In this document: positions 1,837 to 52,941 of the stretch, piece by piece
Numbering within the stretch: the stretch's first letter is position 1
Layout: every line of letters begins with the position of its first letter
Source: an uncultured Chloroflexia bacterium
GTDB taxonomy: Bacteria; Chloroflexota; Chloroflexia; Thermomicrobiales; UBA6265
Direction of reading: 5' to 3'
DNA: 64,000 bases
Assembly: GCA_963741965.1 (NCBI GenBank)
Contig: CAVUKC010000001.1
Location: 602,794 to 666,793, forward strand
Made by a program: the position numbers and the translations under genes
Notes under the pieces: model-generated
The model's input: only the letters and a program-made list of their open reading frames with translations
What the model was told of the DNA's origin: nothing
Databases searched by the model: none

Positions 1837-1882
1837 AGCGCCCGTGTGGCGCCTCGCAAGAGGCGCCACACGGGCGCTTTTC
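1837..1882 (+). terminator. intrinsic terminator after pyk
   Basis: Perfect 19-bp stem AGCGCCCGTGTGGCGCCTC / GAGGCGCCACACGGGCGCT, GCAA loop, then TTTTC. Confidence 0.85.
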
Positions 1883-1949
1883 ATGCTGAGCGTCGAGAGC
1901 ACCATTGGGAAGTTCGGTATGCGCGCCTCGATTCAATAAATGCAAGCAG

Positions 1950-2001
1950 TTGACATCACGCATTGACATTGATACCGTCAGGCTACCTGTTCAACAAACA
2001 G
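1950..2001 (+). promoter_or_regulatory. AT-rich putative promoter/operator region upstream of the CUT2 sugar ABC operon
   Basis: Direct repeat TTGACAT at 1950-1956 and 1963-1969 (-35-like). Inverted repeat CTGTT-N5-AACAG at 1987-2001. About 100 nt upstream of the ATG at 2097, in an otherwise GC-rich context. Confidence 0.3.
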
Positions 2002-2096
2002 TGTCCGAACCCGCCACGGACGCCACAAGAGCGTATTGGCGGCGGCTCGGCCGGATCAGCCTCCTGGCTGGCACCGGCGGTTGAAGGAGGTCCCTG

Positions 2097-3260: not shown

Positions 3261-3306
3261 GCCCGCTGCGCGACTGAGCCGGCATAAGGCCCAGGGGGCG
3301 TACGTT

Positions 3307-28897: not shown

Positions 28898-29971
28898 TCA
28901 GTCGGCGGCGTCCGGAGCGACCCGGGTCAGCTGTCGCACGCCGAGAAGGTCAAGCTCCTCGGCGAAGTGGCAGGCGGCGTGGTGGCCGGGCCGAATCTCT
29001 CGCAGCGGCGGCTCATCGACCTTGCAACGGTCCTGCGCGTACTGGCAGCGCGGGTGGAAGTAGCACCCGGAGGGAGGGTTCACCGGGTCGGCGACCTCTC
29101 CCTGCGGCTTGATGCGCTTGCGGCGGTCCCGCAGGCGCGGGTCCGGCACCGGTACCGCCGACATCAATACCTCGGTGTAGGGGTGGAGCGGGTTGGCGAA
29201 CAGCTCGCGCGTCGGGGCAAGCTCAATGAGCTTCCCGACGTACATCACCGCGACGCGGTCGCAGATGTGTTCGATCACGCTGAGGTCGTGCGAGATGAAC
29301 AGGTACGTGAGGTCGAACTCCCGCTGCAGGTCGGAAAGCAGGTTCAGGATCTGGGCGCGCACGGAGACGTCCAGCGCGGACACGGCTTCGTCGAGCACGA
29401 CGAGGCGCGGGTCGAGCGCAAGGGCGCGGGCGATGCTGATGCGCTGTCGCTCGCCGCCGGAAAACGCGTGGGGGTACCGGCGCATGTACTCGGCGCGCAG
29501 GCCCACCTTCTTCAACAGCTCGGCGATGTGCCGCTCCTGCTCGCGAGACGAGCCGACCTTGAAGGCCTTGAGCGGCTCGCCGACCGTCTGCATCACGGTC
29601 ATGCGGGGGTTGAGCGAGGAGAATGGGTCCTGGAAGACCATCCGGATCTCCTTGCGGTACGGCTTCAGCTGCCGCTGGCTGAACTCCCGCAGGTCCACTG
29701 TCGAGCCGTCTTCCCTGATGTAGTTGATCGCGCCGCCGGTCGGCTCGATCGCCCGGACAATGCTGCGGCCGGTGGTTGTCTTGCCGCAGCCGCTCTCGCC
29801 GACGAGCCCGAGCGTTTCGCCGCGATAGATGGAAAAGGAGACGCCGTCAACCGCCTTGAGCGTCACCGCGGAACGCTTGAGGAAGCCGCCGCCGAGGGGG
29901 AAGTGGACCTGGAGCCGGTCGACCTCCAGCAGCGTCGGGCGAGGCGTCGAGGGTTCAGCTCGCTGTGCCAT
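28898..29971 (-). CDS. Opp/Dpp-type ABC transporter ATP-binding protein (OppF/DppF-like)
   Basis: 357 aa from ATG 29971. Walker A 'GESGCGKTT', 'FSGGERQRI'. The C-terminal Cys motif '[14 protein letters not shown]' is typical of the oligopeptide/dipeptide ATPase C-terminal domain. Confidence 0.9.
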
Positions 29972-31100
29972 CGGTCTCTCCGTGGGATGTCTCGAGCGGG
30001 TCGGGGTTCGCATGAATGTGCTGCGACTGCGGTGTGTCGAGATATTCCGGCTCGTACAGCAGACAGCGGACGTCGCGCCGGTAACCGAGATCGGTTCGTG
30101 GCGGGAGGACGCGGTCGCAGACGCCAGGTATCGCGAAATCGCAGCGGGTGTTGAACGGGCAGCCGTCTGGCCGGTTATAGGGGTCGGGCACCATGCCGCG
30201 GATCGAGTCCAGGCGCTCGCCAGTGGCCTCCCCGAGCCGCGGGATCGAGCGAAGCAGCGCTCGCGTGTACGGGTGCTTCGGCGCGTGGAAGATCTCGTCG
30301 ACGGTGCCGCGCTCGACCACGATGCCGAGGTACATCACCGCGACCTCGTCGGCAATCTCCGCGACGACGCCGAGGTCGTGCGTGATGAAGATCATCGCCA
30401 TGCCGAACTCGTCCTGCAGGCCCTGCATCAGCTCCAGGATTTGCGCCTGGGTGGTCACGTCGAGCGCGGTTGTCGGCTCGTCGGCGATGAGCAGCTGTGG
30501 GTTGTTGGAGAGCGCCATCGCGATCATCGCGCGCTGGCGGAGCCCGCCGCTGAGCTGGAAGGAGTAGCCGTCGAAGCGCTCCTCGGCGCGCGGCACCCCG
30601 ACCTTGCGCAGCATCTCGATCGAGTGCTGCCGGGCCTGCTCCTTGGACATCTTGTTGTGCAGGAGCACGTTCTCTGCGATCTGGCTGCCGATGGTGTGGA
30701 CCGGGCTGAACGAGGTCATCGGCTCCTGGAAGATCATCGAGATATCCTTGCCGCGGATGTCCCGGATCTGCGGTCCCGTCGGATTCAGCTTCGCGAGATC
30801 GACCGTCGAGACGGCGCCGGTCGCAAGGTCCCTGGGGTGGAAGAGCATCTCGCCCTCGATCACCTTGCCGGGCGGCTGGACGATTTGCAGGATCGATCGG
30901 GCGGTCATGCTCTTGCCGCAGCCGCTCTCCCCGACGATGCAGAGCGTCTTGCCCCGCTTGACGTCGAAGGTCGCGCCGTCGAGCGCCTTGACGGTGCCCT
31001 CGTCGAGCTTGAACCAGGTCTTCAGGCCGCGGACCTCGAGCAGCAGGTCCTCCTGCGCCGATGCCGCGGGAGCGGCGGTGTTGTGCGTGGCGGTCGCCAT
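29955..31100 (-). CDS. Opp/Dpp-type ABC transporter ATP-binding protein (OppD/DppD-like)
   Basis: 381 aa. 'GESGCGKSM', 'LSGGLRQRA', C-terminal '[15 protein letters not shown]'. Confidence 0.9.
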
Positions 31101-31114: not shown

Positions 31115-32344
31115 TCAGCTTGCGTAGGGATCGGCGGCGTCGCGCAGGCCGTCACCGAGGAAGTTGAGCGAGATCACCGCGACGACCACCATCACGCCGG
31201 GCAGCAGCAGCCATGGCGCGGTGGAGACCGAGCGGATGTTCTGGGCCTCCTGGAGCAGCACGCCCCAGCTGTTGATGGGAGAGCGCAGCCCGAGGCCGAG
31301 GAAGCTGAGCGAGGTCTCGGCGAGGATCATGGCGGGGATCGCCAGCGTGATCGACGCGATGATGTGGCTGGTGAACGACGGCACCATGTGGCGCAGGATG
31401 ATGCGCATCTCGCCGGTGCCGTCCAGCCGGGCGGCGGTGACGAACTCCTCCTCGCGGAGGGAGAGGAAGCGTCCGCGTACAACGCGGGCGAGACCTGTCC
31501 AGCCGACGATGGAGAGAATGATGGTGATACCGAAGTAGACCTGGAGTGGCGACCAGGTCTTTGGCAGCGCGGCGGCAAGACCCATCCAGAGGGGAATGCC
31601 GGGGATGCTCCGCAGGAATTCGATGAAGCGCTGCACGAAGGTGTCGATCGCGCCGCCGAAGTACCCGGAGATGCCGCCGAGCACGATGCCGAGGATGAGA
31701 CTGATGAAGACGCCGAGCAGACCGAGTGTCATCGAGATGCGCGTACCGAGGATCATCCGGCTGAGCAGATCCTGACCGAGACGGTCGGCGCCGAGGGGAT
31801 AAAACGGCGTGCTGGGGTCGGTGGAGCCGAAGATATGCCGGTCCATCGGGATGAGGCCGAGGAGCTTGTACTCGTACCCCTTCACCCAGAACCCAACCGG
31901 GACGACCTTGTCCGTGTCGATCGTGAAGGTCTTGGCGAGGGTCTCCTTGTCGATCTCGGTCTTGTAGCCGTGGGTATAGAGGCCAACGACCCGCTCGCCG
32001 TCCTCCTCGCGCACGAAGTTGATGCCCTGGGGCGGCGCGTAGGTATAGGCGGCGTTGACATCGGTGGGGTCGTTCGGCGCGAGCATCTCGGCGAACGCGG
32101 CAACCAGGTAGAGCAGGATCACGATCACGAGCCCAGCCATCGCGAGCTTGTGGCGGCGGAACTTCCACCACATCAGCTTCCACTGGGAGGCGACGTAGAC
32201 GGTCTGCTCGGGCTGGCTCGTCTCCTCGGTGAGGTCCACCGCCTCCGGCACGCGATCCTGGACGGCGGTGCCATCGACATCGCTGTGCCCCAGCGGGGAC
32301 GCCCCCGGTTGCGCCTGCTCGATGCTCAGGTCCTCGTTACGCAT
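31115..32344 (-). CDS. Opp/Dpp-type ABC transporter permease (OppC/DppC-like)
   Basis: 409 aa with a long N-terminal/periplasmic extension. Its EAA loop contains 'AARLDGTGEMRIILRHMVP'. Confidence 0.85.
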   Translation of the reverse strand: MRNEDLSIEQAQPGASPLGHSDVDGTAVQDRVPEAVDLTEETSQPEQTVYVASQWKLMWWKFRRHKLAMAGLVIVILLYLVAAFAEMLAPNDPTDVNAAYTYAPPQGINFVREEDGERVVGLYTHGYKTEIDKETLAKTFTIDTDKVVPVGFWVKGYEYKLLGLIPMDRHIFGSTDPSTPFYPLGADRLGQDLLSRMILGTRISMTLGLLGVFISLILGIVLGGISGYFGGAIDTFVQRFIEFLRSIPGIPLWMGLAAALPKTWSPLQVYFGITIILSIVGWTGLARVVRGRFLSLREEEFVTAARLDGTGEMRIILRHMVPSFTSHIIASITLAIPAMILAETSLSFLGLGLRSPINSWGVLLQEAQNIRSVSTAPWLLLPGVMVVVAVISLNFLGDGLRDAADPYAS

Positions 32345-32395
32345 GTCTCACGCCTTTCGAAACGCTGGGAATCCTCATCGGCTCGGCCAGGAAGG

Positions 32396-33379
32396 TCAAT
32401 AGCGGATTCTGGGATCAAGCCATGCCAGCAGGATGTCCGAGAGCAGCGTGCCGATGACGGTGAGCACGCTGGTCAACAGGATCAGACTGCCAGCGAGGTA
32501 CATGTCCTGCGACTGCAAGGCGCGGAGCAGCAGCGGCCCGACGGTCGGCAGGCTGAGCACCACGCCGATGATCGCCTCGCCGGAGACCAGCGTCGGCAGG
32601 ATGAAACCCGAGGTGCTGACGAACGGGTTGAGCGCCATGCGGACCGGGTACTTGAGCAGAAGGGTGCGCTCGTCGAGCCCCTTGGCGCGAGCGGTGACGA
32701 CGTACGGCTTGTTGAGCTCATCCATGAGATTGGCGCGCATGATTCGCACGAGACCGGCGGTCGACGCGACGCCGACGATCACAATGGGGATCCAGAGATG
32801 CGCCATGAGGTCGGCGAACTTGTCGAAGCTCCAGGCTGCATCGACGTACTGCGGCGAGTAGAGCCCGCCGACGCTCTGATGGAAGTAGCGGAACGAGATG
32901 TAGAGCAGGATCAGGGCGATCATGAACTCGGGTATCGCCAGGCCGAGGAAGGCCATGAACGTGAGGACGTAGTCGCCGACGGTGTACTTTCGCACGGCGG
33001 AGTAGATGCCGAGCGGAAAGGCGATGGCCCAGGTGAGCAGGAGTGAGCCGACGGAGATGGCGATGGTGAATCCGATGCGGGAGCCGATGAGATCGGTCAC
33101 CGGGCGGTTGTATTCGAATGAGTCGCCGAAGTCGAAGTGAAGGATGATATTCCGCATCCAGTAGAAATACTGCACATACCATGGCTCGCCGAGCCCGTAG
33201 CGCTCCCGCAGCGCGACGAGCGCCTGCTGGTTCACCTGCTCGCCCTGGCTGCTCATCGCGGCGACCAGGGTGGTGAGGTAATCACCTGGCGGCAGCTGGA
33301 TGATGATGAACACCACGATGGAGATGGCGAAGACCGTGGGGATCATATACAGGGTGCGCCGAATGATGAAGGTGAACAT
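32396..33379 (-). CDS. Opp/Dpp-type ABC transporter permease (OppB/DppB-like)
   Basis: ATG 33379 (RBS AGGAG 8 nt upstream) gives 327 aa starting 'MFTFIIRRTLYMIPTVFAIS', the canonical OppB/DppB N-terminus. Confidence 0.85.
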   Translation of the reverse strand: MFTFIIRRTLYMIPTVFAISIVVFIIIQLPPGDYLTTLVAAMSSQGEQVNQQALVALRERYGLGEPWYVQYFYWMRNIILHFDFGDSFEYNRPVTDLIGSRIGFTIAISVGSLLLTWAIAFPLGIYSAVRKYTVGDYVLTFMAFLGLAIPEFMIALILLYISFRYFHQSVGGLYSPQYVDAAWSFDKFADLMAHLWIPIVIVGVASTAGLVRIMRANLMDELNKPYVVTARAKGLDERTLLLKYPVRMALNPFVSTSGFILPTLVSGEAIIGVVLSLPTVGPLLLRALQSQDMYLAGSLILLTSVLTVIGTLLSDILLAWLDPRIRY

Positions 33380-33673
33380 CAGCGGATCTCCTGGACGGAG
33401 CATGTCGGCCAGGCGGTGCTGTGGTGCGCTGGCTCGCCCGTGGGTTGTGTGAACGTCTCTACTGAAGCACATCGCTGGTGGCGTGTACAAGTGGCGCGGG
33501 TATCAGCCAGCTGGCTGACGGGCGTTCTGCGCGAAGGAAGCATCGCAGGAGGACTCCAAAATTCGGTCCGGATGCCGGACGTCCCGGACTCCGGCTGGCG
33601 GGAGCCACCAGTGAGGCGCTGCGAGACAGGATGATACGGATTGCGCTGCATCCGGCTGTGATGATCGTGCTGC

Positions 33674-33694
33674 TGAATCATATATGATATATGC
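33674..33694. promoter_or_regulatory. AT-rich palindromic operator candidate, site A
   Basis: 'TGAATCATATATGATATATGC' with a perfect 12-bp palindrome ATCATATATGAT at 33677-33688. It lies in the 412-bp spacer between the SBP and permease genes and shares its core with sites B, C and D. Confidence 0.6.
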
Positions 33695-33739
33695 GATTCG
33701 GAACAAGCGAGCAGATGGCGACCGGTCATTATCGCGAAC

Positions 33740-33772
33740 CAGCCCGACCGGTCGCTGCGACCGGTCGGGCTG
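33740..33772 (-). terminator. hairpin just downstream of the SBP gene (attenuator/terminator inside the ABC operon)
   Basis: Perfect 15-bp stem CAGCCCGACCGGTCG / CGACCGGTCGGGCTG with a 3-nt loop, 20 nt after the SBP stop at 33792. Confidence 0.65.
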
Positions 33773-33791
33773 GTGTGTTCCTGGCGGTGAG

Positions 33792-35768
33792 CTACTCCTG
33801 CTGACCGCCCTCGTAGAAGTACGTCTCCGGATGCGACGGCGCCGGGTTCGGGTAGAGCCAGGCGCCCGGCATCGACGCGGGCACGTTCTTCATGTTGACC
33901 TTCTTGATGCCGTAGCCAATCGCCGGCAGGCTGATGCCGATCGCGTTGAAGTTCTCCTGTGCGATCGCGAGCAGCTCGTTGAAGAGCTCGTCCTGCTTGG
34001 CGGGGTCTGGCGTGGTCTCGATCTCAGCGTAGAGGTCCACCTGCTTCTGGATGCTTTCGGGCGGCTCCATCGCCTCCGTCTGCGGGTTGGCGCCGGCGTT
34101 GTTCGCCCAGACCACCCAGGCCTCGCCCCAGAGCGACTCGTCACTGTGCGGGTAGTACCAGCGGGCTTCGAGCATGGCGTCGTTGAGACCGCCGTCACCG
34201 CCCCAGACCGCACAGTCGTGCTCGTTGGCCGCCTTGCGGGTGTACATGAGCGAGCGATCCTCCGGCTTGAGGCTCGCGTTGACGCCGACCGCCTTCCAGT
34301 AGTCGATCACCAGGTTGGAGGCATCCGTCCAGAACGGATTGAGCTCGGCGGCGACCTCGACGACGAACGAGAACGGATCGCCGCTCGGCATCAGGCGCAT
34401 GCCGTCGCCGTCCTTGTCCGGCAGCACCTTGTCGAGAGCCTCGTTCGCCTTGTCGACGTCAAACTCGGTGAACTGTTTGGCCAGATCCTCGTTGTACCAG
34501 CGCGTCTCCTGGCGCGGGCAGAGCTGCCACGGCTCGCCCTGGCTCACGAACACGGCGTCGATGATCTCCTGGCGGTTGATCGCATAGGAGAGCCCGACGC
34601 GGAAGTCCTTGTTCTGGAAGATCTCCCGCATCGCCTCGTTCTTGTGCGTCTGGTTGATCGCGTACACGGTGGTGTTCATCGACGATGGCACGATATCGAA
34701 GAACTCGTAGCCGCCCTTCTCGCGGTTCTCGGCCAGCACCGGCTTGTTGGTGTCCGTCGTGATGTGCCGCGCGTGCATGTCGATCTCGCCGTTGGAGGCC
34801 CGCAGCAGCAGCACTTCCGGGTCCTCGAGCACGTCGAACACGACCTCGTCGATGTACGGCAGCTGCTGTCCCTGGGTATCGACCTTCCAGTAGTACGGGT
34901 TGCGCTCGAAGCGGACCCGCGTGCCCTCGCCGTACGGCTCCACCAGCTTCCAGGCGTGGAGGCGCGGCAGCTCGACGTTCGACCAGCGGGCATCGTACGG
35001 CGTGCCCGGGATGCCCGCGCCCTTCTTCCGGAAGAGCTCGACCCAGTCCTGCGCGCCCTCGTCCTTGATCATCTGGTCGAGGGTGTCAGTGTTGAAGTCC
35101 TTGTGGAACTGCTCGAGGTAGTGGCGTGGGTAGCGGGTCCATTCGACACCGGCCGCCTCGCACATGTGCTGCAGCGCGAAGCCGTTCGGGGTCTCGTAGG
35201 TGACCGTGAAGGTCTGGTCGTCGGCGACCTCGATCGAGAAGTTGATGTCCGGCGCTGCCGGGTTCAGCTCTTCGTTGTAGCGGACGCTGTTGACGTAGAA
35301 CTCGACGTCGGCCGAGGTGAACGGCTCGCCGTCGGACCACTTCATGCCCTTGCGCAGATGGAAGGTGAAGGCGGTGCCGTCGTCCGAGACCTCGACCGCC
35401 TTGGCGATGTCCGGAAGCACCTCGGACCAGTCGACCGACCATGTCACGAGGTTGTCGTAGTTGACGGTGCGCTCCAGCCAGGCGGTGTCCTGACCGCCGA
35501 TGAGCGCGGTGCGCCACGTGCCGCCATAGGTGCCGACGGAGTCGATCGGATCGAGCACCATCGGCTCTTCACCGATGCGCTCGGCCACCGGCGGCAGGTC
35601 CTGACCCTCGAGGAACGGGGACTGGCTGATCTCGGCGGGGACGGCCGGGGTTTGCGCGACAGCGTACCCGCCTCGGGCGCCGGCGGCAACGGTGAAGCCG
35701 ATGGCTCCGCTGACCTGCAGGAATCGCCGTCGGGAGTACGGCTGGCGGAACGGGGAAACCTTCGACAT
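33792..35768 (-). CDS. ABC transporter substrate-binding protein, family 5 (peptide/nickel/oligosaccharide type)
   Basis: ATG 35768 (RBS AAGGAGAG) gives 658 aa. Tat signal 'SRRRFLQVSGAIGFTVAAGA'. The tracked ORF start at 35927 is over-extended. Confidence 0.85.
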   Translation of the reverse strand: MSKVSPFRQPYSRRRFLQVSGAIGFTVAAGARGGYAVAQTPAVPAEISQSPFLEGQDLPPVAERIGEEPMVLDPIDSVGTYGGTWRTALIGGQDTAWLERTVNYDNLVTWSVDWSEVLPDIAKAVEVSDDGTAFTFHLRKGMKWSDGEPFTSADVEFYVNSVRYNEELNPAAPDINFSIEVADDQTFTVTYETPNGFALQHMCEAAGVEWTRYPRHYLEQFHKDFNTDTLDQMIKDEGAQDWVELFRKKGAGIPGTPYDARWSNVELPRLHAWKLVEPYGEGTRVRFERNPYYWKVDTQGQQLPYIDEVVFDVLEDPEVLLLRASNGEIDMHARHITTDTNKPVLAENREKGGYEFFDIVPSSMNTTVYAINQTHKNEAMREIFQNKDFRVGLSYAINRQEIIDAVFVSQGEPWQLCPRQETRWYNEDLAKQFTEFDVDKANEALDKVLPDKDGDGMRLMPSGDPFSFVVEVAAELNPFWTDASNLVIDYWKAVGVNASLKPEDRSLMYTRKAANEHDCAVWGGDGGLNDAMLEARWYYPHSDESLWGEAWVVWANNAGANPQTEAMEPPESIQKQVDLYAEIETTPDPAKQDELFNELLAIAQENFNAIGISLPAIGYGIKKVNMKNVPASMPGAWLYPNPAPSHPETYFYEGGQQE

Positions 35769-35925
35769 GGATGTCTCTCCTTGTGGGGTAACGACCTTCC
35801 GAGTCCCATCCATGCAGCGCGTCCGGTGCACGCAGGCACGAGGATGCATCTTCCCCGAAACCCTCCAGCACCCGGCATGGACCCGGGCTGGCGGTGCGTT
35901 CAAATGGCGTTCTGCACGTGCCGGC

Positions 35926-35945
35926 ATTCTATATCATATAGGAAC
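35926..35945. promoter_or_regulatory. AT-rich operator candidate, site B
   Basis: 'ATTCTATATCATATAGGAAC'. It shares 13 identical nt (TCTATATCATATA) with site D and lies ~160 nt upstream of the SBP ATG. Confidence 0.55.
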
Positions 35946-36051
35946 GGTCGCGCAATCGAGACAAGGCGTTTTGGAGCACCGCGGGGTGAGAACGTGCTGT
36001 CGAGACACAGCACTTTCGTGTCACCGTGACGCACTCTCGTCTGCACCCAAG

Positions 36052-36088
36052 GCGGTGGACGGCCGATGATGCACCGACCGTCCGCCGC
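36052..36088 (-). terminator. hairpin downstream of the heparinase-like gene
   Basis: 11-bp stem GCGGTGGACGG / CCGTCCGCCGC (one G-U pair) with a 15-nt loop, 34 nt after the stop at 36122. No clear U-tract. Confidence 0.4.
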
Positions 36089-36121
36089 GGGATTGCTATA
36101 CAACGATGGGCACAGGTGCAA

Positions 36122-38014
36122 TCAGGCGTGGGCGCGTAGCGTCCAGCTGCCTTCCGCGGCCGGCTTCCGCAGGGTGAGCAACACCCGCGTGACGAAGTCG
36201 CCCCAGACCGGTGTCATCCGGCGGTCATCGATGTCGATGCGCTCGGTTTCGACGTCCCATCGGTCGGCGTCGTAATCGACGAGCAGGTCGCGCTTCGGGC
36301 CGGCGAGCCGGAGCTGTCCCGCGATGGACGTATCGACGTCGCTTGCCGCCATGAGGGTGAGCACGATGCTGTCGGGCTTGTGGCCAAGCTTCCAGGTGTC
36401 CTCCAGCAGGACAGCGGCATCCGTCCCGCGCTCGAGGCGGACGGTGCGGTCCCATCGTTCGATGCCTGCGGCGGCGTCCCATGCGCCCGCGATGTCGAGC
36501 CGGAGCTCGGCGCGATCGTCTGCCAGGTCGGCCCGCACGTCCCGCGCCTGGTACTCCGAGCCGGGTGACTGCTGGTGCCCATCGACCGTCGGCAGGTTGT
36601 GGTACGCGCTCTGCATCGTCCAGATCTCGTATCGCTGCGAGCTGAAGGTCTTCCTCGTGTACTCCTCGACGCCCGCATCGATCAGGACTGGCTGGCCGTC
36701 GAGCCCGACGATGAAGCTGCCGATGTCGTTGTGGTTGTGGCTCTCGCCGTTGTTGCCACCCTTGGCCGCAACGAAGAGTCCGTCCGATGTCCCCTCGGTT
36801 TCGCGCGCGGTGAGCACCTGGATGCCATCCAGCCAGCTCTGCCGGATCAGCGGGTATGGCGGAATCGGGTCTGGCTGCGGCACCGGCCGGAAGTACGTGT
36901 TGAGGAAGCGGTTGAACGACCGGAACTCGGCGTTCTCCGGCGTCACGTCCGCCTGCGACGCGATCGCGTGTTGCATGAGCCTGTCGTCCCCGATCTTCTC
37001 GCCGAAGTGGTAGACGATGTTCGGGTCCGGGATGGTCTTCGCGGTGCCGTCGGCGAAGTTGACGTACCAGTCGCCGCCGATGTGGGCGCGCAGGACGTAG
37101 CGCGCCATCTCCTGGATGAGCGACTCATCCCAGATGGCGATTGCGCCGTTCGAGGCGGTATCGAGCACATGGAGGCACTCGTAAACGCTCGCACCGGCGC
37201 GACCCCAGTAGGAGATCCCCTCGTCGCAGCCGCCGTCGCTGTGGTAGCCGCCGAGGAACTCGTCGAGACCGCGCAGGGCACGGTGGATCGCCTGGGCGCG
37301 TTGCTCGACGTCGTCCTCGATCAGCATCTCGAGCGCGAGCAGGTTGCTGATGATCCAGGGGTTCCAGTTGTTCGGCGGACCCTTGTGTCCTTCGTCGCGG
37401 ACGAACCCGAGCCACCACCACTCGTCGCGCTCCATGAACGGATCCAGCAGGCGGGTCCGGATCTCGTGGCGCATGCGAGCCGTGACGATGGGATCGACCC
37501 CGTCCAGCTTCTCGCCGACGAGGTAGTGGGTGTAGCCGATCACGGCGCCGGTTTCGGCTGAGAAGAGGGCGACGACAGGGTTGGTGACGTCCGGCAGCGG
37601 GTGGTTGCGATCCCACGACGACCGGGTGAAATAGCGGTTGTGGGCGGGGACGTCCCAGAAGCTCTCCTCGCAGATCGCCCAGACGCCATTGACGATATCG
37701 TCGACGAAGCGGCCCTGGTTTTCGACGCACTCGGCGGCGACGAGGCGGATGAGCATCTTGCGGCGGTCGTAGGACGCTGCCTGGTAGCGCGAGCGGTTGC
37801 CGTCGCGCTGGAACTCCATGAAGAGTGTTGCCTTGAGCTCGGGCCACGACGTGCCGAGCAGCGGCTCGGCGTCCGCGACGAGCGCCCGCCTCTGCTCCTC
37901 GGGCAGTCCGTCCCATGCTTGCCGGTCGGAGATCGCGGGGTAGGGCCGCCACTCCCCGGGCGGTACGAGATCGCGACGAATCTGGTCGATCGGGAATCGT
38001 TCTGCGAGCTTCAT
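36122..38014 (-). CDS. heparinase II/III-like family protein (polysaccharide-lyase fold), no signal peptide
   Basis: 630 aa from ATG 38014 (RBS GGGAG 5 nt upstream). The alternative ATG at 38095 lies inside operator site C and has no RBS. Typical N-terminal toroid pattern 'GNRSRYQAASYDRRKML...VWAICEESFWDVPAHN' and C-terminal 'GNNGESHNHNDIGSFIV'. Confidence 0.75.
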   Translation of the reverse strand: MKLAERFPIDQIRRDLVPPGEWRPYPAISDRQAWDGLPEEQRRALVADAEPLLGTSWPELKATLFMEFQRDGNRSRYQAASYDRRKMLIRLVAAECVENQGRFVDDIVNGVWAICEESFWDVPAHNRYFTRSSWDRNHPLPDVTNPVVALFSAETGAVIGYTHYLVGEKLDGVDPIVTARMRHEIRTRLLDPFMERDEWWWLGFVRDEGHKGPPNNWNPWIISNLLALEMLIEDDVEQRAQAIHRALRGLDEFLGGYHSDGGCDEGISYWGRAGASVYECLHVLDTASNGAIAIWDESLIQEMARYVLRAHIGGDWYVNFADGTAKTIPDPNIVYHFGEKIGDDRLMQHAIASQADVTPENAEFRSFNRFLNTYFRPVPQPDPIPPYPLIRQSWLDGIQVLTARETEGTSDGLFVAAKGGNNGESHNHNDIGSFIVGLDGQPVLIDAGVEEYTRKTFSSQRYEIWTMQSAYHNLPTVDGHQQSPGSEYQARDVRADLADDRAELRLDIAGAWDAAAGIERWDRTVRLERGTDAAVLLEDTWKLGHKPDSIVLTLMAASDVDTSIAGQLRLAGPKRDLLVDYDADRWDVETERIDIDDRRMTPVWGDFVTRVLLTLRKPAAEGSWTLRAHA

Positions 38015-38085
38015 GTGCACTCCCGCGCGTCGCGCGACCCGGTCCGGGCGCGCCGTGATCCGTAATGACTCCTTGGGCTCGGGAT

Positions 38086-38104
38086 CGTACATCATATATT
38101 TTCG
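38086..38104. promoter_or_regulatory. AT-rich operator candidate, site C (half-site)
   Basis: 'CGTACATCATATATTTTCG' contains the core ATCATATAT. It lies ~75 nt upstream of the heparinase-like ATG at 38014. Confidence 0.45.
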
Positions 38105-38182
38105 GCTGTAAATGCCGTCCTCGGTCTTGATTCGGATTCGATCGCGGCGTGTGCGCTTTGCATCAGCACCGCGTCGACACTC

Positions 38183-40070
38183 CTATACGGGTGGAATGCG
38201 CAGTGTCCGGCCGCGCCAGGCGATCTCGACGCGGCCATCCTCTCCCCATGTCACCGACGGTTGGTCGTTCAGTCGGTCGTGCAGCGAGCGTTCGCGCACC
38301 TGGCGGGATGTGCCGAGGAAGACCGTTGAAAGCGCGACGTCACCGGGCCGCAGCTCCCCGGTGAGATAGGGGATCACATTGCTGCTATGCACCACGTTGC
38401 CGGCCCCGCCGTCGGCGAAGGAGCGTGGCAGGTGCGGTCTCCTGATCGTGTCCCAGGAGCGCATAGCCACGGCATGCTCGTTCGAGGTGCCACCGCTGAT
38501 GCGCGTTTCCGGGTCGCACACCAGCTGCGGCGTGTCGCCATGGTCGAAGCCGAGCGCGGCCGCGCCCTCCAGCGTCGTGAGCGGACCGTTGGCGCTGCTT
38601 TCCACGAGGCGATGCACGCGCAGGTGAAGGTCGCCATCAGGCACCACGATGGTGTCGAACAGCGCCTGGGTGCCCGCGACCTCGTGACGGTGCCGATAGC
38701 GGATCCAGCCGTCGTCGTGAATGACAGCCGACTCGTTACCAGTCCGGTGGGAGACGTAGCCGTCGATGTGGATTGCGATCATCGCGTCCGGCGTCGGCGC
38801 GCCATCGCCGAGTCCAGCGTTGTACGGTGCCGCGGTGGAGTAGGCGAGCTTGGCGTACTTCGCGTGGGTGTGCGCGGTGTGCATCGTGAAGCGGTGGATC
38901 TCGCCGGACTCATGGGTGCCGCTCAGGATCCAGCCCGGCTGGGTGAAGACCTTGTGCACGTCGCCTTGGTCGATCGGCAAAGGCTCGGGCTCGCAGGTCC
39001 AGAATGGATCATCGTCGCGGAGACGCCACAGCCCGCCGAACGCCTGCATCGCCCAGTACGGCGCGCCGGTGGAGATGTACGTCTCCCGGATCGCCTCGCT
39101 TCCGGTGGACGTGAGCGCCTGTCGCAGCGAGCCGTCCGCGCGCACCGCGCCATGGCGCAGGTACCAGCCGATATGGCGCTCGACGATGGTGCGGAGCAAT
39201 CCCGGTGAGTGCGGCCAGGCGCCGTGACGGTAGGCCCAGAGCAGTGCGCCGAGACGGGCGAACTTGTACGCGCCGCTGCGTCCGTATTCCGGCCAGGCGC
39301 CGTCTGCCGCGAAGAAGAGCGGCACGTGCCGCATCTGCGCGCGCACCCGCTCCAGCAGCTCTGCGGCGCGGCGTGCGTTCCGGCCGCCATCGATATCGAT
39401 CCAGGCGAGCACGTGCGATGAGAAGACCCACAGGTTGTAGTCGTCGAAGTGGTTGGTGCCGATCGCCGCGCCGTCGTCGTACCAGCCGTCGCCGCAGTAG
39501 ACACCGTCGAGGTAGCGTCCCATCACGTCGTCGACGATGTCCTGGTCGAACGGGAGCTCGAGCGCCTGCCGCGCGGCGTGGTTGACGGCCCAGAACAGCG
39601 CCCAGTTGTTGCGCCAGCGCTGCTCCGGCGGCTGGCCACAGGCGATCAGCCAGTCGGCGATCTGCCGTCGTTCAGCCGGCTCGAGGGTATTCCAGATACG
39701 ATCTCGGGTCAGCCAGAGCGCATAGGCGACCTGGCCGGATTCGACGGTCGGCTGGGCGAGGCCGGTGCTCACCGGGTCGCCCCAGTAGGCGGGCCGTGCG
39801 GGCGGTGCCGGCAAGGAGCGCCCGCCGCGTGAGCGCCTCGAGGTCGTAGCCGCGGCCTCGCCAGGCGAGCGTGCCCGGACGCTCGGGATCCGAGAGCCAG
39901 CCGCCAAGCCCCCACATCATGCGCGTGGTGCCTTCGTAGGAGCCATTCGGCTCGGCGTGGTTGCGAATGCCGTCGATGAGCAGGTTGGCGCCGGCGGCGT
40001 CGAGGTGGTTCGCCCAGCCGGCGACGAGCATCGACCAGGTGTCGGTCATGCTGCGCTGAAAATCGGTCAC
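38183..40070 (-). pseudogene. DUF2264 family protein, interrupted by a +1 frame change near 39790-39805
   Basis: ORF 39672..40070 encodes the N-terminus ('SYEGTTRMMWGLGGWL...LTRRALLAGTA'). ORF 38183..39907 continues in the +1 frame ('PAYWGDPVSTGLAQPTVESGQVAYALW...'). The total span is 1888 nt (3n+1). The family call is from memory of the DUF2264 pattern (EGFAR..WG ... hPeYWG ... Q..VE). Confidence 0.6.
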
Positions 40071-40100
40071 GAGAAGCTCCCGGCGAAGAGTGGCTCGAAG

Positions 40101-40123
40101 AATCTATATCATATATGATAGTC
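40101..40123. promoter_or_regulatory. AT-rich palindromic operator candidate, site D (divergent control region)
   Basis: 'AATCTATATCATATATGATAGTC' with a perfect 14-bp palindrome TATCATATATGATA at 40107-40120. It lies 37 nt from the DUF2264 ATG (40070) and 61 nt from the GntR GTG (40181). Confidence 0.65.
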
Positions 40124-40180: not shown

Positions 40181-40855
40181 GTGTTGCACCTGGATCAGCC
40201 GAAGGGGCAGGCGTACCGTACCAAGACCGAGCTGGTCCATGCCACGTTGCGCTCCGCGATCATGCGCTGCGAGCTCCAGCCAGGCGCTCGCCTGATCATC
40301 GACGACATTTCGGAGTCGCTCGGTGTCAGCCACATCCCCGTGCGCGAGGCGCTGAACAAGCTGCAGTCCGAGGGGCTCGTCTCGGTGATTCCGCACAGCG
40401 GCGCCACCGTTGCGCCGGTCTCGCCGGGAGATGTCGCGGAGATCTTCTCGATCATGGAAGGACTGGAGATCGTCGCCACGCGGCTTGCCGCGGAGCGGGC
40501 GTCAGAGGAGGACCTCGCCGCGCTGGCGGCGTTGCTCGATCCCATGGACAGGGCTGTGGCCGAGCAGGAGCTGGAAACCTGGGCGGAGCTCAACATCGAG
40601 TTCCACCGCGCGATATCCGCGATCACCGGCATGCCCATGCTGGGCGAGATGATGAACCGGGTGCTCGATCGCTGGGACCGCGTGCGCCGCTATGTGCGCG
40701 TGCTGCCCACCCGCATGGCGGAGGCACAGCAACAGCACCACGACATCGTGCGGGCGCTGCAGCGCCACGATGTCGCCACCGCCCAGGCGCTGGCGACCTT
40801 GCACAATCGCGGGGCGCTGGGAGCGTACCAGTCGCGCCTCGACGCTGACGAGTAG
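40181..40855 (+). CDS. GntR family transcriptional regulator (FadR-like, FCD-type C-terminal domain)
   Basis: Winged HTH 'ISESLGVSHIPVREALNKLQSEGLV' with an all-helical C-terminal domain. GTG 40181 is preceded by AAGAGGA. The tracked ATG at 40115 lies inside the palindrome and lacks an RBS. Confidence 0.85.
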   Translation: MLHLDQPKGQAYRTKTELVHATLRSAIMRCELQPGARLIIDDISESLGVSHIPVREALNKLQSEGLVSVIPHSGATVAPVSPGDVAEIFSIMEGLEIVATRLAAERASEEDLAALAALLDPMDRAVAEQELETWAELNIEFHRAISAITGMPMLGEMMNRVLDRWDRVRRYVRVLPTRMAEAQQQHHDIVRALQRHDVATAQALATLHNRGALGAYQSRLDADE

Positions 40856-40916: not shown

Positions 40917-42080
40917 ATGGCGGAGCATCGCGTAGGCATCATCATGAACGGCGTGACTGGGCGCATGGGCACGAACCAGCACCTCGTGCGGTCCATCCTC
41001 GCCATCCGCGAGCAGGGTGGAGTGAAGGTCGACGACCACACCAGCATCATGCCGGATCCAATCCTGGTCGGACGCAACGAGGACAAGCTGCGGAAGCTGG
41101 CCTCAGCGCACGGTGTCGAGCGCTGGACCACGGATCTGGACGCCGCGCTGGCGAACCCGGACGACATCCTCTACTTCGACTCCCAGCAGACGCTGCGACG
41201 AGCCGACAGCATCAAGCGCGCCATTGCCGCCGGCAAGCACATCTACTGCGAGAAGCCGACAGCAACGAGCACCGAGACCGCGCTGGAGCTTGCCAGGATC
41301 GCGCGCGACGCCGGGGTGAAGAATGGCGTGGTGCAGGACAAGCTCTTCCTGCCGGGGCTGATGAAGCTCAAGCGGCTGATCGACGGCGGCTTCTTCGGCC
41401 GCATCCTCTCCGTGCGCGGCGAGTTCGGCTACTGGGTGTTCGAGGGCGACTGGCAGCCGGCGCAGCGGCCGAGCTGGAACTACCGCAAGGAAGACGGCGG
41501 CGGCATCATGGTCGACATGCTCTGCCACTGGCGCTATGTCCTCGACAACACGTTCGGGCCGGTCAAGTCGGTCAGCACGCTCGGCGCGATCCACATCCCC
41601 GAGCGGGTGGATGAGAACGGCCAACCCTATGCCGCCACGGCCGACGACGCCGCGTACTCCAACTTCATCGTCGGCGACGACATCATCGTCAACATCAACT
41701 CGTCGTGGGCGACGCGCGTCTATCGCGATGAGCTCTTCGTGCTCCAGGTGGACGGGACCGAGGGCAGCGCGATAGCCGGTCTGCGGGAGTGCAAGGTCCA
41801 GCACCGTGCCGTCACGCCGAAACCGGTCTGGAACCCGGACGTGCCGAACCCGTTCAATTTCTACGACGACTGGCAGGACGTGCCCGACAACCAGGTGTTC
41901 GAGAACGCGTTCAAGGTGCAGTGGGAGATGTTCCTCCGCCACATCGTCTGCGATGACCCGCACCCGTTCGACCTGCTCGCGGGCGCGAAGGGCATCCAGC
42001 TCGCCGAGCTTGGGCTGAGGTCGTGGGAAGAGCGGCGCTGGCTCGACGTGCCGGATCTCACCGCCCAGCTGGAAGGATAG
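40917..42080 (+). CDS. Gfo/Idh/MocA family oxidoreductase
   Basis: 387 aa from ATG 40917. 'RVGIIMNGVTGRMG' Rossmann motif and 'GKHIYCEKPTA' motif. Confidence 0.85.
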   Translation: MAEHRVGIIMNGVTGRMGTNQHLVRSILAIREQGGVKVDDHTSIMPDPILVGRNEDKLRKLASAHGVERWTTDLDAALANPDDILYFDSQQTLRRADSIKRAIAAGKHIYCEKPTATSTETALELARIARDAGVKNGVVQDKLFLPGLMKLKRLIDGGFFGRILSVRGEFGYWVFEGDWQPAQRPSWNYRKEDGGGIMVDMLCHWRYVLDNTFGPVKSVSTLGAIHIPERVDENGQPYAATADDAAYSNFIVGDDIIVNINSSWATRVYRDELFVLQVDGTEGSAIAGLRECKVQHRAVTPKPVWNPDVPNPFNFYDDWQDVPDNQVFENAFKVQWEMFLRHIVCDDPHPFDLLAGAKGIQLAELGLRSWEERRWLDVPDLTAQLEG

Positions 42081-42085: not shown

Positions 42086-43261
42086 ATGGCGATCACCGGC
42101 ACCTCCCTCCGCCTCCCGACCGCATCGGGAGCCGTGGAGACCTACCAGCCGCGTCCGGGCGCCGATCCTGGTGTCGGGTTCAGCGAGCCGCGCACTCGCG
42201 TTGCGTTTGCCGCCTGCCACGTCGTGCCGGATGCGATGGCCGACATCAACCCGACACTTGATGTCGCGCTCGACTGGGACGCGACGATGGCCTACCGACG
42301 CTACCTCTGGTCGCTCGGGCTCGGCGTCGCTGAGGCGATGGACACCGCGCAGCGCGGCATGGGGCTCGACTGGGAGACATCGAAGGAGCTGATCCGCCGC
42401 TCGGTCGAGGAGTCGAAGGCCACCGGCGGTCGGCTCGCCTCTGGCGCCGGCACCGATCACCTCGCGCCGTCACCGGAGCTTTCCGTCGACGACGTGATCG
42501 CGGCGTACGAGGAGCAATGCGGCTACGTCGAGGGCGTCGGCGGGCGCATCATCCTCATGGCCAGCCGGGCACTGGCGGCATGCGCGAAGGGGCCCGAGGA
42601 CTACGCAACTGTCTACGGTCGCATCCTCTCGCAGGTCAGGGAGCCGGTGATCATTCACTGGCTCGGCGACATGTTCGACCCCGCGCTTGCGGGCTACTGG
42701 GGAAGCGACGAGATCGACGCGGCGATGGACACGGCCGTCGCGATCATCACAGAGCACGCCGACAAGGTCGACGGCGTCAAGGTCTCGCTGCTGGACGCCC
42801 AGCGGGAGATCGACATGCGCCGCCGCCTGCCCGAGGGCGTGCGGATGTACACCGGCGACGATTTCAACTACCCATCGCTGATCCGGGGCGACGAGCAGGG
42901 CCACTCCGACGCGCTGCTCGGCATCTTCGACGCGATCGCACCGGTCGCGGGAGCCGCCTTCGCCGCGCTCGATGCCGGTGACCTGGACCGCTACGACGAG
43001 CTGTTCGCGCCGACGGTGCCGCTCTCTCGCCACATCTTCTCGGCGCCGACGCGGTTCTACAAGACCGGCGTGGTATTCCTCGCATGGCTCAACGGGCACC
43101 AGGACCACTTCCGCATGGTGAACGGGCAGGAGAGCTGCCGTTCCGTGGTGCATCTCGCGCAGCTCTTCCGGCTCGCCGACGAGGCGCGGCTGTTCACGGA
43201 CACCGATCGAGTGACGGCGCGGATGCGGGCGTTTCTCGAAGTGGCGGGGGTGCCGCAATGA
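42086..43261 (+). CDS. DUF993 family protein (uncharacterised)
   Basis: 391 aa from ATG 42086 (RBS GGAAGGA), starting 5 nt after the previous stop. The family call is from memory of DUF993 proteins that accompany Gfo/Idh/MocA and TIM-barrel isomerase genes. Confidence 0.6.
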   Translation: MAITGTSLRLPTASGAVETYQPRPGADPGVGFSEPRTRVAFAACHVVPDAMADINPTLDVALDWDATMAYRRYLWSLGLGVAEAMDTAQRGMGLDWETSKELIRRSVEESKATGGRLASGAGTDHLAPSPELSVDDVIAAYEEQCGYVEGVGGRIILMASRALAACAKGPEDYATVYGRILSQVREPVIIHWLGDMFDPALAGYWGSDEIDAAMDTAVAIITEHADKVDGVKVSLLDAQREIDMRRRLPEGVRMYTGDDFNYPSLIRGDEQGHSDALLGIFDAIAPVAGAAFAALDAGDLDRYDELFAPTVPLSRHIFSAPTRFYKTGVVFLAWLNGHQDHFRMVNGQESCRSVVHLAQLFRLADEARLFTDTDRVTARMRAFLEVAGVPQ

Positions 43262-44079
43262 CCGAGGGCGATTTCTCCCGGCTCAGCTTCAACCAGAAGA
43301 CGCTCGACCAGTGGGACATGCGGCAGGCGATCGAGGGCTGTGCGCGCCATGAGATCCCGTGGATCGCGCCGTGGCGCGACAAGATCGCGGAGATCGGTCT
43401 GGACGAGACCGCAAAGCTGATCCGCGACGCCGGACTCAAGGTGTCGAGCCTCTGCCGGGGCGGGTTCTTTCCCGCGCCGACCACCGAGGAGCAAAAGGCG
43501 GCGATCGAGGACAACCGCTGCGCGATTCACGAGGCCGCCACACTCGGCACGGACGTGCTGGTGATGGTCAACGGCGGCATGAACGGCTGCCGCATCCAGG
43601 ACGCGCGAGACATGGTGCGCGACGGCATCGAGGCGATCCTGCCGTACGCCGAGGAGCGCGGTGTGAAGATCGGCATCGAGCCGCTGCATCCGGCGTTCGC
43701 GGCGGACCGCGCCGTGACCGCCTCCCTGGAGGAGGCGAACGACCTCGCCGAGCACTTCGGCTCGCCGTGGGTCGGGGTCGTGATCGACATCTACCACGTC
43801 TGGTGGGACGCGCACGTTCACCGGGAGATCAAGCGGGCGGCACCGTATACCCTGGGGTTCCACGTCAACGACTGGCTGGTGCCGAACACGAACGTGCTGG
43901 TCGGCCGCGGCATGATGGGCGACGGCGTCGTCGACAATCGCGAGCTGCGCGAGTGGGTCGATGCCGAGGGCTACAACGGGCCGATCGAGGTGGAGATCTT
44001 CAACGAGGAGATCTGGCAGCGCGACGGTGATGAGGTGCTTGAGGAGATGAAGGCGCGGTACGTCTCGCACGTCTTGTAG
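43258..44079 (+). CDS. sugar phosphate isomerase/epimerase (xylose-isomerase-like TIM barrel)
   Basis: 273 aa. The ATG overlaps the DUF993 stop (ATGA). 'GTDVLVMVNGG', 'IGIEPLHP' and 'GFHVNDW' are typical of AP-endonuclease-2/xylose-isomerase-like TIM barrels. Confidence 0.8.
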   Translation: MTEGDFSRLSFNQKTLDQWDMRQAIEGCARHEIPWIAPWRDKIAEIGLDETAKLIRDAGLKVSSLCRGGFFPAPTTEEQKAAIEDNRCAIHEAATLGTDVLVMVNGGMNGCRIQDARDMVRDGIEAILPYAEERGVKIGIEPLHPAFAADRAVTASLEEANDLAEHFGSPWVGVVIDIYHVWWDAHVHREIKRAAPYTLGFHVNDWLVPNTNVLVGRGMMGDGVVDNRELREWVDAEGYNGPIEVEIFNEEIWQRDGDEVLEEMKARYVSHVL

Positions 44080-45745: not shown

Positions 45746-46925
45746 CTAGACAGCCTTGAGGGAGATCATCGGCTTGTAGGCGGAGCCGGAGTCCTCGACC
45801 TCGTCGAAGATACCGTTCTGGCGGTCCTCGACGACGGCGTTGATCTCGTTGGTGAGCTCCTCGAGCATGTCCTCCTCGAGCACGGTCTTGACGATCTTGC
45901 CCTTGCGGAAGATGACGCCCTTGCCGTTGCCGGAGGCGATGCCGACATCGGCGTCTCGCGCCTCGCCGGGTCCGTTGACCACGCAGCCCATGACGGCGAC
46001 GCGGATCGGCTCCTGCACGGTCTCGAGAACCTTGTCGACCTGGTTGGCGAGCTTGAAGAGATCGACTTCGACGCGGCCGCAGGTCGGGCAGGCGATCATC
46101 GTCGCGCCCTTCTGCCGCAGCTCCAGGCTCTTGAGGATCTCGTACGCAACGAAGACCTCTTCCTTCGGGTCGGTCGTCAGCGAGACGCGGATGGTGTCGC
46201 CGATACCCATCGCCAGCAGCGTGCCAATGCCGATCGCGCTGCGGACACTGCCGGCGCGGGGCGTCCCGGCCTCGGTCACGCCGAGGTGGAGCGGGTAGTC
46301 GTTGTCGAGACGGGCGAAGCGCTGGTACGCCTCGAGCAGCACCGGCACCTCGAACGCCTTGAGGCTGACCTTGGTCTCGTAGAAGTCGAGGTCCTCGAGA
46401 ATCTTGATGTGCCCGAGCGCGGAGCGGACGAGCCACTCGGCGCGGAGCTCGACCTGGGTCGCATTCTGCTGCGCCATCTCGTCGACGAACTCTTCGGTCA
46501 TCGGTGCGACCGAGCCGAAGTTGACGCCGATGCGGATGGGAACGCCGCGCTCCTTCGCCTTGGCAACGACCTCGCGGACATCCTCCGGCTTGCGGATGTT
46601 GCCCGGGTTGAGTCGAAGCCCGTGGATGCCGGCATCGAGCGCCTTCAGTGCGAGTGTGTGCTCGAAGTGGATGTCGGCGATCAGCGGCACCGCGGCGTAC
46701 GGGAACGATGTCCGGCAGGGCCGCCGCCGCCTTGCGGTCCGGCACGGCGATGCGAACGATCTCGCAGCCGACGCTGGCGAGGTCCTCGATCTGCGCGAGC
46801 GTCGCCTTGGGGTCGCGCGTGTCGGCGGTGGCCATGGACTGGACGCGGATCGGGTTCAGGCCGCCGATCTCGACGCCTCCGACATTGAGCACGCGCGTCT
46901 TGCGGCGCGGGGCAAGTAGTGACAT
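45746..46925 (-). pseudogene. ispG: 4-hydroxy-3-methylbut-2-enyl diphosphate synthase IspG (GcpE), interrupted by a +1 frame change near 46690-46705
   Basis: The N-terminus starts at ATG 46925 (RBS GGAGGAAA): 'MSLLAPRRKTRVLNVGGVEIGGLNPIRVQSMATADTRD...ALPDIV'. It continues in the +1 frame as ORF 45746..46690: 'PLIADIHFEH...LRLNPGNI...ACPTCGR...VMGCVVNGPGE'. The span is 1180 nt (3n+1). Confidence 0.9.
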
Positions 46926-52836: not shown

Positions 52837-52941
52837 GGAGCGAATGCGAGCCAGTCGAGGCACGACATCGCGACATACCGAGGCTGAACGGTCGCGTCGC
52901 ATCGACACGTTGACCATCGTTGGTGAAGGACCAGGAGCACT

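Follow-up and report, generated by a model that had tools for sequence, protein, structure and literature searches.

Proposed operators of a GntR/FadR-subfamily regulator: an alternating-TA palindrome at four intergenic sites of a catabolic locus in an uncultured Chloroflexia bacterium

The stretch of DNA analysed here, 64,000 nucleotides of contig CAVUKC010000001.1 from an uncultured Chloroflexia bacterium (assembly GCA_963741965.1, positions 602,794 to 666,793; hereafter the window), carries a catabolic locus in which one short palindromic motif stands at four intergenic sites, named A to D. The motif has the consensus TATATC(A/C)TATA(T/G)GATATA with the half-site ATC(A/C)TA, and site D adjoins the gene of a GntR-family regulator of the FadR subfamily (40181-40855). 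Comparison of the locus with its relatives makes it very probable that the four sites are operators of this regulator, which would repress the locus through them by promoter occlusion. The kind of system, in which a local regulator acts on palindromic operators that cover the promoters of its catabolic locus, is well known; the regulator clade, its operator and its regulon appear to be undescribed, and a full-text literature search for ATCATATATGAT, the palindrome of site A, found no paper.

The four sites had been singled out by a first-pass annotation made from the sequence letters and a list of open reading frames (ORFs), which took them for the operator of the adjacent GntR protein. The AT-rich strings that it quoted are found exactly at 33674-33694 (A), 35926-35945 (B), 38086-38104 (C) and 40101-40123 (D), in DNA with a G+C content of 62-68% along the whole window, and a gene map drawn from codon-position G+C, translation and Pfam matches places all four between genes (Table 1). 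Site D holds a perfect 14-bp palindrome, TATCATATATGATA (40107-40120), site A has a 12-bp palindrome at 33677-33688, and a run of 13 nt, TCTATATCATATA, is common to sites B and D. The motif had been described as an AT-only palindrome, of which the palindrome stands and the restriction to A and T does not, since the C and the G at positions -4 and +4 from the dyad are among the conserved ones. Its shared core, ATCATATA, does occur in four intergenic copies; a fifth exact copy had been missed, at 33342-33349, within the first permease gene and 30 to 37 nt past the start codon ATG. This copy is probably due to chance, because its score with a matrix of the full motif stays under 8 bits, and as it also lies within coding sequence it was rejected as a functional intragenic site. 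Three misleading starts in the ORF list, 33684 (+), 38095 (-) and 40115 (+), are indeed ATGs within the motif, as had been pointed out, and the real starts GTG 40181 and ATG 38014 are supported by orthologue lengths, alignments and conserved start regions.

The count of the core is far above expectation, with seven strand matches to ATCATATA at five places in the window against 0.16 expected from dinucleotide-preserving shuffles, none of which gave more than two. The sites were then scored with a symmetric matrix of 24 columns (consensus TATATCATATATGATATA, from 58 sites) that was refined on related loci only, with the window excluded. These related loci, 97 in all and labelled in the style L001, were collected for comparison by contig look-ups and by scans of genome and metagenome collections. 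With the window-free matrix, sites A (30.4 bits), D (30.0), B (19.9) and C (17.8) are the top four matches in the 64 kb, and the next-best match has 9.2 bits. When the window was simulated with a first-order Markov model and scored with a near-identical matrix to which the window's own sites had contributed, hits of 15 bits or more arose at a rate of 0.025 per 64 kb. The proposed restriction of the motif to this locus therefore holds within the 64-kb window, which was the scope of the scan, as the window-free matrix finds nothing comparable outside the locus. A near-palindrome at 53365-53388, GGATCACATATGATCC, is the fifth-best matrix match in the window (9-11 bits); it falls in the span of a plus-strand ORF (52927-53832) with coding-like codon-position G+C, is probably unrelated, and was set aside as too weak for a distant regulon member.

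The information in the matrix is highest in the central ATAT and at the C or G of each half, and beyond +/-9 it is at most 0.2 bit per position. Variants of the motif are found with both halves altered symmetrically (ATCCTATAGGAT in L055) and with one half altered (ATCATATAGGAT in L001, in L007 and at site B of the window), and such paired or single half-site variants are as expected for a dimer reading two half-sites on a dyad. A first refinement of the matrix, which admitted hits 4 nt apart at a low threshold, drifted to 154 'sites' and was discarded; an alternating-TA sequence fits itself again when shifted by 2 or 7 nt, which caused the drift. The final matrix was built from non-overlapping hits at a higher threshold, after which the window was left out. 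In about half of the sites an extra half-site-like ATATG or CATAT is seen exactly 7 bp outside one arm, as in ATCATA-TATGATA-TATG (site A of the window, 33677-33696; L028 2818, L067 2974, L093 2779, L015 7068). In the pooled matrix this third half-site, or heptad periodicity, shows up weakly, and we treat it as no more than a lead.

The ease with which alternating TA overlaps itself, together with the recurrence of 8-mers, one of them inside the gene at 33342, raises the question of whether the sites could have clustered by chance or stem from a short dispersed repeat. We give this explanation next to no probability. The excess over expectation is large, the positions are conserved in orthologous loci, and a repeat search that groups the four copies as one family finds that their similarity ends at about 19 nt. 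A dispersed repeat, such as a repetitive extragenic palindrome (REP) or an element like a miniature inverted-repeat transposable element (MITE), is effectively refuted by the short similarity, by the lack of further copies in the 64 kb and by the orthologous conservation.

Four close relatives have the same locus (L009, L018, L019 and L020; regulator 78-83% identical), and in these the motif lies in gaps that match those of the window, namely between the DUF2264 gene and the regulator, between the DUF2264 gene and the lyase, and ahead of the binding-protein genes. The phylogenetic footprinting suggested by the first-pass annotation bears out its proposal: in the set L007, L009 and L018-L020 the positions orthologous to D and C show the motif as an invariant island within intergenic DNA that is otherwise poorly conserved (53-57% mean column identity). 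The island in the D region reads TATATCATATA.GATA, and the alignment of the C region reads GGAT..TACAT.ATATAT with a conserved GTAAA; at site C, GGATCGTACAT(C/G)ATATAT is kept in L019, L020, L009 and L007. At site B a 19-nt block, TCCTATATGATATAGAATG (minus strand), is identical in L009.

Beyond these close relatives the motif adjoins relatives of the regulator at 39-83% identity, both in metagenome-assembled genomes (MAGs) with the label Chloroflexota and in contigs with regulators that match MAG proteins of the label Acidobacteria or Vicinamibacteria. A set of 85 non-redundant related loci (530 kb) contains 61 sites of at least 17 bits, and simulations gave none. Not one of the 61 is inside a homology-labelled gene; coding status was judged by such genes, and a test based on spanning by long ORFs was dropped, since spurious long ORFs occur on every strand of high-GC DNA. 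Where at least 3.3 kb of sequence upstream of the regulator gene was available, a site lies within those 3.3 kb or more in 26 of 33 loci, and in four others it is found further up, heading a longer operon. The remaining three have less than 17 bits upstream: L051 and L070 have matches of 14.8 and 12.4 bits there, and L062 has one of 16.3 bits elsewhere in the locus. Loci without a site are mostly short contigs that end inside the operon.

The more distant relatives (regulator 39-64% identical), whose neighbouring genes are different, provide the strongest evidence, for there too the palindrome heads the operon that contains or adjoins the regulator gene. Over all related loci the contexts include DUF2264, lyase and ATP-binding cassette (ABC) importer genes; the sugar-acid genes MR_MLE and UxaC, with adh_short, beside ApbE-GFO-GntR; TonB receptor-GFO-GntR; GFO-DUF993-isomerase-GntR; and other ABC systems. 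In the ApbE-type loci, which lie on contigs of 66-73% G+C, the regulator (48-61% identical) is the fourth gene of an operon made up of ApbE, an unknown protein of about 177 aa, GFO and GntR, and MAG proteins labelled Acidobacteria and Vicinamibacteria are among its best matches in the databases. Next to this operon there is often a divergent MR_MLE/adh_short operon, which UxaC joins in L013, and the only TATATC or ATCATA hexamers in 20 kb of L013 sit in the divergent promoter region (site at 6969-6992; L015 has one at 7068-7091, and similar sites are found in L022, L029, L038 and L076). In L001 and L002, MAGs labelled Chloroflexota with a regulator 40-42% identical and quite different neighbours, a double motif stands upstream of the regulator: TATCATATAGGATATAAGATATATC in L001 (9903-9935, about 45 nt from the ATG) and a close variant in L002 (9899-9930, about 55 nt).

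The only DNA-binding protein that travels with the motif through these contexts is this GntR regulator. It could nevertheless be argued that a different transcription factor, encoded elsewhere in the genome, binds the sites and that the GntR gene is a bystander, since the motif has none of the GT/AC boxes expected of the GntR family, a point that counts against the regulator as the binding protein. We consider a bystander very improbable, because the GntR gene is the only regulator gene in all motif-bearing contexts and the variants of the motif follow changes in its recognition helix, and because control of the own gene and of adjacent ones is common among regulators of this type (PMC4494728, PMC7641319).

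The regulator itself combines a winged helix-turn-helix (wHTH) domain with the all-helical C-terminal effector domain FCD. Pfam GntR (PF00392) is matched at residues 18-77 with 52.5 bits against a cut-off of 27, and Pfam FCD (PF07729) at residues 87-208 with 99.9 bits against 24.3. The protein has 671 homologues at E <= 0.001, and its best match in the genome collection is 42% identical; its nearest solved structures are FCD-type regulators (7xp0, McbR 4p9f, 7u5q, 6z74 and TM0439), and no NCBIfam equivalog model reaches its cut-off for it. H142, H186 and H208 are invariant in 34 homologues, and by analogy with TM0439-type structures these residues may lie at the metal site of the FCD domain. 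Every regulator that is paired with the motif has S-x-IPVREAL in its recognition helix (VSHIPVREAL in the window) and an invariant Arg-Thr-Lys near its N-terminus.

In the FadR-DNA complex the base-specific guanine contacts are made by Arg35 and Arg45 (PMC4494728, Table 1). A BLASTP alignment with the N-terminal domain of E. coli FadR, in a sequence whose numbering agrees with Table 1 of PMC4494728, places H51 of the window regulator at Arg45 and a gap or D41 at Arg35, and Arg49 is kept as R55. Unlike in canonical FadR, position 51 is H, S, A, I, L, P or T across the clade and never Arg, and the base-contact arginines of FadR are not matched. The consensus TATATCATATATGATATA contains no GT/AC pair, unlike the canonical GntR/FadR operator; since the motif has no GT/AC boxes and the clade has no equivalent of Arg45, protein and operator depart from the family canon together. 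At the loci of paralogues that are 24-32% identical and carry the canonical Arg (GRTPVRQ, SRNSLRE, SRQPVQQ), the motif is absent. A subgroup with Leu at position 51 (VSLIPVREAL, in place of His, Ser or Ala) has sites with the core ATTATATAAT, in which the C/G is missing and the arms are 2 bp closer together (L050 1498, L056 3577, L057 3002, L061 5954, L068 671). This pairing hints at co-variation of protein and DNA, confounded by shared ancestry. Taken with the statistics in the window, the footprints and the co-occurrence with the regulator, the absence of the motif at the Arg-bearing paralogues supports the view that the four sites are the operator of the adjacent GntR protein.

Repression by promoter occlusion fits the positions of the sites, because each of the four in the window overlaps a predicted -10 hexamer or spacer (Table 1). 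In the mechanism that we propose, a dimer of the regulator would recognise the two-fold symmetric motif and, when unliganded, would shut the transcription units by excluding RNA polymerase. Five such units, each with a site overlapping a predicted promoter, are plausible: the regulator-GFO-DUF993-isomerase-like operon, the GH154-like dehydratase gene, the PL33-like lyase gene, the binding-protein gene and the permease/ATPase genes. At site D the two halves of the palindrome would themselves be the TATGAT -10 hexamers of two divergent promoters. Binding of a pathway intermediate to the FCD domain would then release the regulator from the DNA.

Several observations weigh against this interpretation. 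The promoters of site A, of site B and of the regulator were assigned by eye, and their -35 hexamers match TTGACA at only two or three of six positions. Site A lies about 300 nt upstream of the permease start (ATG 33379) and about 50 nt past the hairpin behind the solute-binding protein gene, and L010, the nearest relative in which the junction between the binding-protein and permease genes is kept, does not have it. Sites B and C each combine one good half-site with one degenerate half. Part of the conservation of sites D, C and B may stem from the promoters, because the palindrome has good -10 hexamers on both strands. In the ApbE-type high-GC loci the centre of the site is 9-10 nt upstream of a TTGAC -35 box, which is not a simple occlusion of the -10 hexamer.

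The last of these positions, at about -45, resembles that of an activator and would suit repression too, and activation is possible in the ApbE-type loci because the site centre is upstream of the -35 box. E. coli FadR has opposite effects at fabA and at the fad genes, and the same regulator might likewise activate transcription here, or activate some promoters and repress others. The poor -35 of the regulator's own promoter in the window (TGGCTC) is also usual for activated promoters. We regard this alternative as unlikely, because all sites of the window and of its close relatives overlap a -10 hexamer or a spacer, where an activator would not be expected, and because repression is typical of locus-encoded FadR-type regulators that serve sugar-acid and polysaccharide catabolism, AusR being an example (PMC7641319).

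The motif might also be the promoter element itself, either back-to-back -10 hexamers or an AT-rich upstream element for RNA polymerase. TATGAT matches TATAAT at five of six positions on both strands, and at site D both copies fit the divergent promoters. This explanation is quite improbable. The full palindrome is also found between co-directional genes, at A and in part at B and C, where a second -10 hexamer would be useless, and the window's other genes, of which there are dozens, have no comparable match upstream. In the loci of the ApbE type the motif is upstream of the -35 box and so is not a -10 hexamer, and it follows a single regulator clade through MAGs whose labels name different phyla. 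Upstream (UP) elements, moreover, consist of A- and T-tracts and not of alternating TA with a fixed C and G. Operators of the GntR regulator that overlap its promoters are the reading that we retain.

The nearest characterised system is that of AusR from Zobellia galactanivorans, a FadR-subfamily GntR repressor of an alginate utilisation system whose effectors are unsaturated uronate oligosaccharides (PMC7641319). The binding and the effectors of AusR have been shown experimentally, whereas those of the regulator described here are predicted from sequence. As in the case of AusR, the regulator gene lies amid lyase, uptake and uronate-processing genes, and the proposed operators are at several promoters of the locus including the regulator's own. 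AusR has one to three operator copies per promoter, most of them over a core promoter box, and is released by degradation intermediates; from the gene content of the window locus, an AusR-like effector, that is an unsaturated uronate oligosaccharide or a related intermediate, would be expected here. In contrast, the AusR operator fits TKGT-N2-3-ACMA and the window motif does not, and AusR belongs to a polysaccharide utilisation locus (PUL) of the Bacteroidota with SusC and SusD, whereas the window locus has an Opp/Dpp-type ABC importer in a Thermomicrobia-like genome.

Operators of the FadR subfamily have the consensus of TKGT and ACMA boxes 2-3 nt apart (NyGTNxACNy in the family form), with BioR and NanR listed as exceptions (PMC4494728). 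The window system shares with UxuR/ExuR, DgoR, GntR, LldR and PdhR (PMC4494728) the GntR wHTH and FCD domains, a palindrome of similar size in A/T-rich context, sites in the promoter of the regulator and in those of adjacent catabolic genes, and uronate or sugar-acid catabolism as the theme; it differs from them in that the only G/C pair per half-site is the C at -4 or the G at +4. BioR (TTATMKATAA) and NanR (direct repeats of TGGTATAW) provide a precedent for AT-rich motifs outside the GT/AC type in this subfamily (PMC4494728), although the window motif is an inverted repeat of 14-18 bp, unlike the 10-bp site of BioR and the direct-repeat array of NanR. An array of the NanR type was not found, the core of the motif being an inverted repeat; the extra half-site 7 bp outside one arm, present in about half of the sites, loosely resembles the multiple repeats of NanR.

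A more specific reading of the recognition, which we put forward as a tentative possibility, is that a clade without the Arg-guanine contacts reads an alternating-TA palindrome in which each half-site is itself a -10 hexamer (TATGAT), so that the dimer would compete base for base with the sigma factor at two divergent promoters. Recognition might then draw on DNA shape and on the invariant N-terminal Arg-Thr-Lys arm, and half-sites phased at 7 bp might recruit further dimers as in NanR. In either form, the analysis offers a testable operator, regulator and regulon for a widespread, uncharacterised GntR clade of uncultured bacteria, and our searches turned up no experimentally characterised regulator of this kind in the Chloroflexota or the Acidobacteria/Vicinamibacteria. 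A FadR-subfamily protein without the canonical contact arginines, paired with an operator without GT/AC boxes, should be useful to models of specificity in the family. The motif could also serve as a marker for genes of uronate-glycan catabolism, including the poorly understood families that always accompany it, namely DUF993, the GFO-type oxidoreductases and the ApbE-linked module.

The genes of the locus are listed in Table 1. The lyase matches PDB entries 8r6z-8r75 at an E value of about 1e-118, and these are PL33 lyases that cleave glycosaminoglycans and gellan (PMC11848413). DUF2264 (PF10022) is the former family GH154, one member of which is a beta-D-glucuronate dehydratase that readies terminal glucuronate for removal (PMC12269599), and the intact DUF2264 orthologue of L009 matches the glucuronate dehydratase of PDB 9o4u/9nwf. 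The DUF2264-like protein, like the lyase, is without a signal peptide, and the binding protein has one. An oligosaccharide that contains uronate appears to be taken up by the ABC system of the locus and degraded in the cytoplasm, and the GFO, DUF993 and isomerase-like proteins would process the degradation products. The genes for these three proteins are probably co-transcribed with the regulator: the gaps along regulator, GFO, DUF993 and isomerase-like genes are 61 nt, 5 nt and a 4-nt overlap, no matrix match lies between them, and the same order behind the regulator is found in L007, L009, L018 and L020. The hairpin directly after the stop codon of the binding-protein gene is likely to be a terminator or attenuator that separates this unit from the one headed by site A, and a hairpin of different sequence stands at the equivalent place in L010.

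Table 1. Proposed operators, predicted promoters and genes of the locus in the window, with the evidence for each
Feature	Coordinates	Strand	Context or remark	Basis
Site D, proposed operator TATATCATATATGATAGT	40105-40122	.	110-bp divergent gap, DUF2264 start GTG 40070 to GntR start GTG 40181	
Site C, weaker proposed operator	38088-38105	.	gap 38015-38182; left half ATCATA (38091-38096) perfect, right half TATTTT degenerate	
Site B, proposed operator TATATCATATAGGAACGG	35930-35947	.	gap 35769-36121; halves ATCATA and TAGGAA	
Site A, proposed operator	33674-33691	.	gap 33380-33791; ATCATATATGAT (33677-33688) then ATATATG	
Predicted D promoter, TCGGCA-18-TATGAT		-	-10 inside D	promoter scan
Predicted D promoter (regulator's own), TGGCTC-17-TATGAT		+	other half of D is the -10; -35 is TGGCCA in L018-L020	read by eye from alignment
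Predicted C promoter, TTTACA-17-TACGAT	38112-38107 and 38089-38084	-	brackets C; both hexamers conserved in orthologues	scan and alignment
Predicted B promoter, TTGCGC-18-TAGAAT	35955-35950 and 35931-35926	-	B fills spacer and overlaps -10	read by eye
Possible A promoter, TTGTTC-18-TATGAT	33706-33701 and 33682-33677	-	A overlaps promoter	read by eye
GntR-family regulator, FadR subfamily (wHTH and FCD)	40181-40855	+	proposed binding protein	Pfam
DUF2264/GH154-like (glucuronate-dehydratase family)	38183-40070	-	divergent from site D	Pfam PF10022
PL33-like lyase (heparinase II/III-like), no signal peptide	36122-38014	-	downstream of site C	Pfam Hepar_II_III_C
Family-5 solute-binding protein, twin-arginine-type signal SRRRFLQ	33792-35768	-	downstream of site B	Pfam SBP_bac_5, translation
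Hairpin, perfect 18-bp stem, 1-nt gap	33738-33774	-	directly after stop codon of the solute-binding protein gene	repeat search
Opp/Dpp-type permeases	31115-32347, 32396-33379	-	downstream of site A	Pfam BPD_transp_1, OppC_N
Opp/Dpp-type ATPases	28898-29971, 29955-31100	-	downstream of site A	Pfam ABC_tran, oligo_HPY
GFO/IDH/MocA oxidoreductase	40917-42080	+		Pfam, NCBIfam
DUF993	42086-43261	+		Pfam, NCBIfam, PDB 4dnh
AP_endonuc_2-like TIM-barrel, isomerase-like	43258-44079	+		Pfam, NCBIfam

The DUF2264 gene of the window has a break of frame near 39803 (39790-39815), where the 633-aa orthologue from L009 aligns by tblastn with its residues 8-89 and 91-629 in different frames, which by itself could mean either a pseudogene or an assembly indel. 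A second frameshift is seen in ispG/gcpE (45749-46925, minus strand) at about 46702, with residues 1-75 and 75-392 of a 93%-identical homologue in different frames. Because ispG is normally essential and is frameshifted as well, both breaks are probably errors of sequencing or assembly and not real gene loss. The IspG protein of the window has 85-93% identity to proteins from MAGs labelled Thermomicrobia, Thermomicrobiales or Chloroflexota, so that the DNA probably comes from an uncultured bacterium of this group.

The long intergenic gaps of the locus were also considered as places for an RNA element or riboswitch, for which we found no support: there is no Rfam match in the window, and the folds are no more stable than those of shuffled sequences (z from -1.3 to +1.4). 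From site A to the start of the permease gene there are about 300 nt (33380-33676), an unusually long stretch; it likewise has no Rfam match, and the ORF screen showed no ORF with coding-like codon-position G+C in it. L010, which among full-length relatives of the locus is the closest, has two family-5 binding-protein genes in tandem (823-5311), each with its own copy of the motif upstream, where the window has one such gene. In the leader of the window's binding-protein gene, downstream of site B, a block at 35898-35920 (minus strand), CAC.TGCAGAACGC.ATTTGAAC, is nearly identical in L009 while the rest of the leader has diverged, and this block may be a second regulatory element or a region of transcription start.

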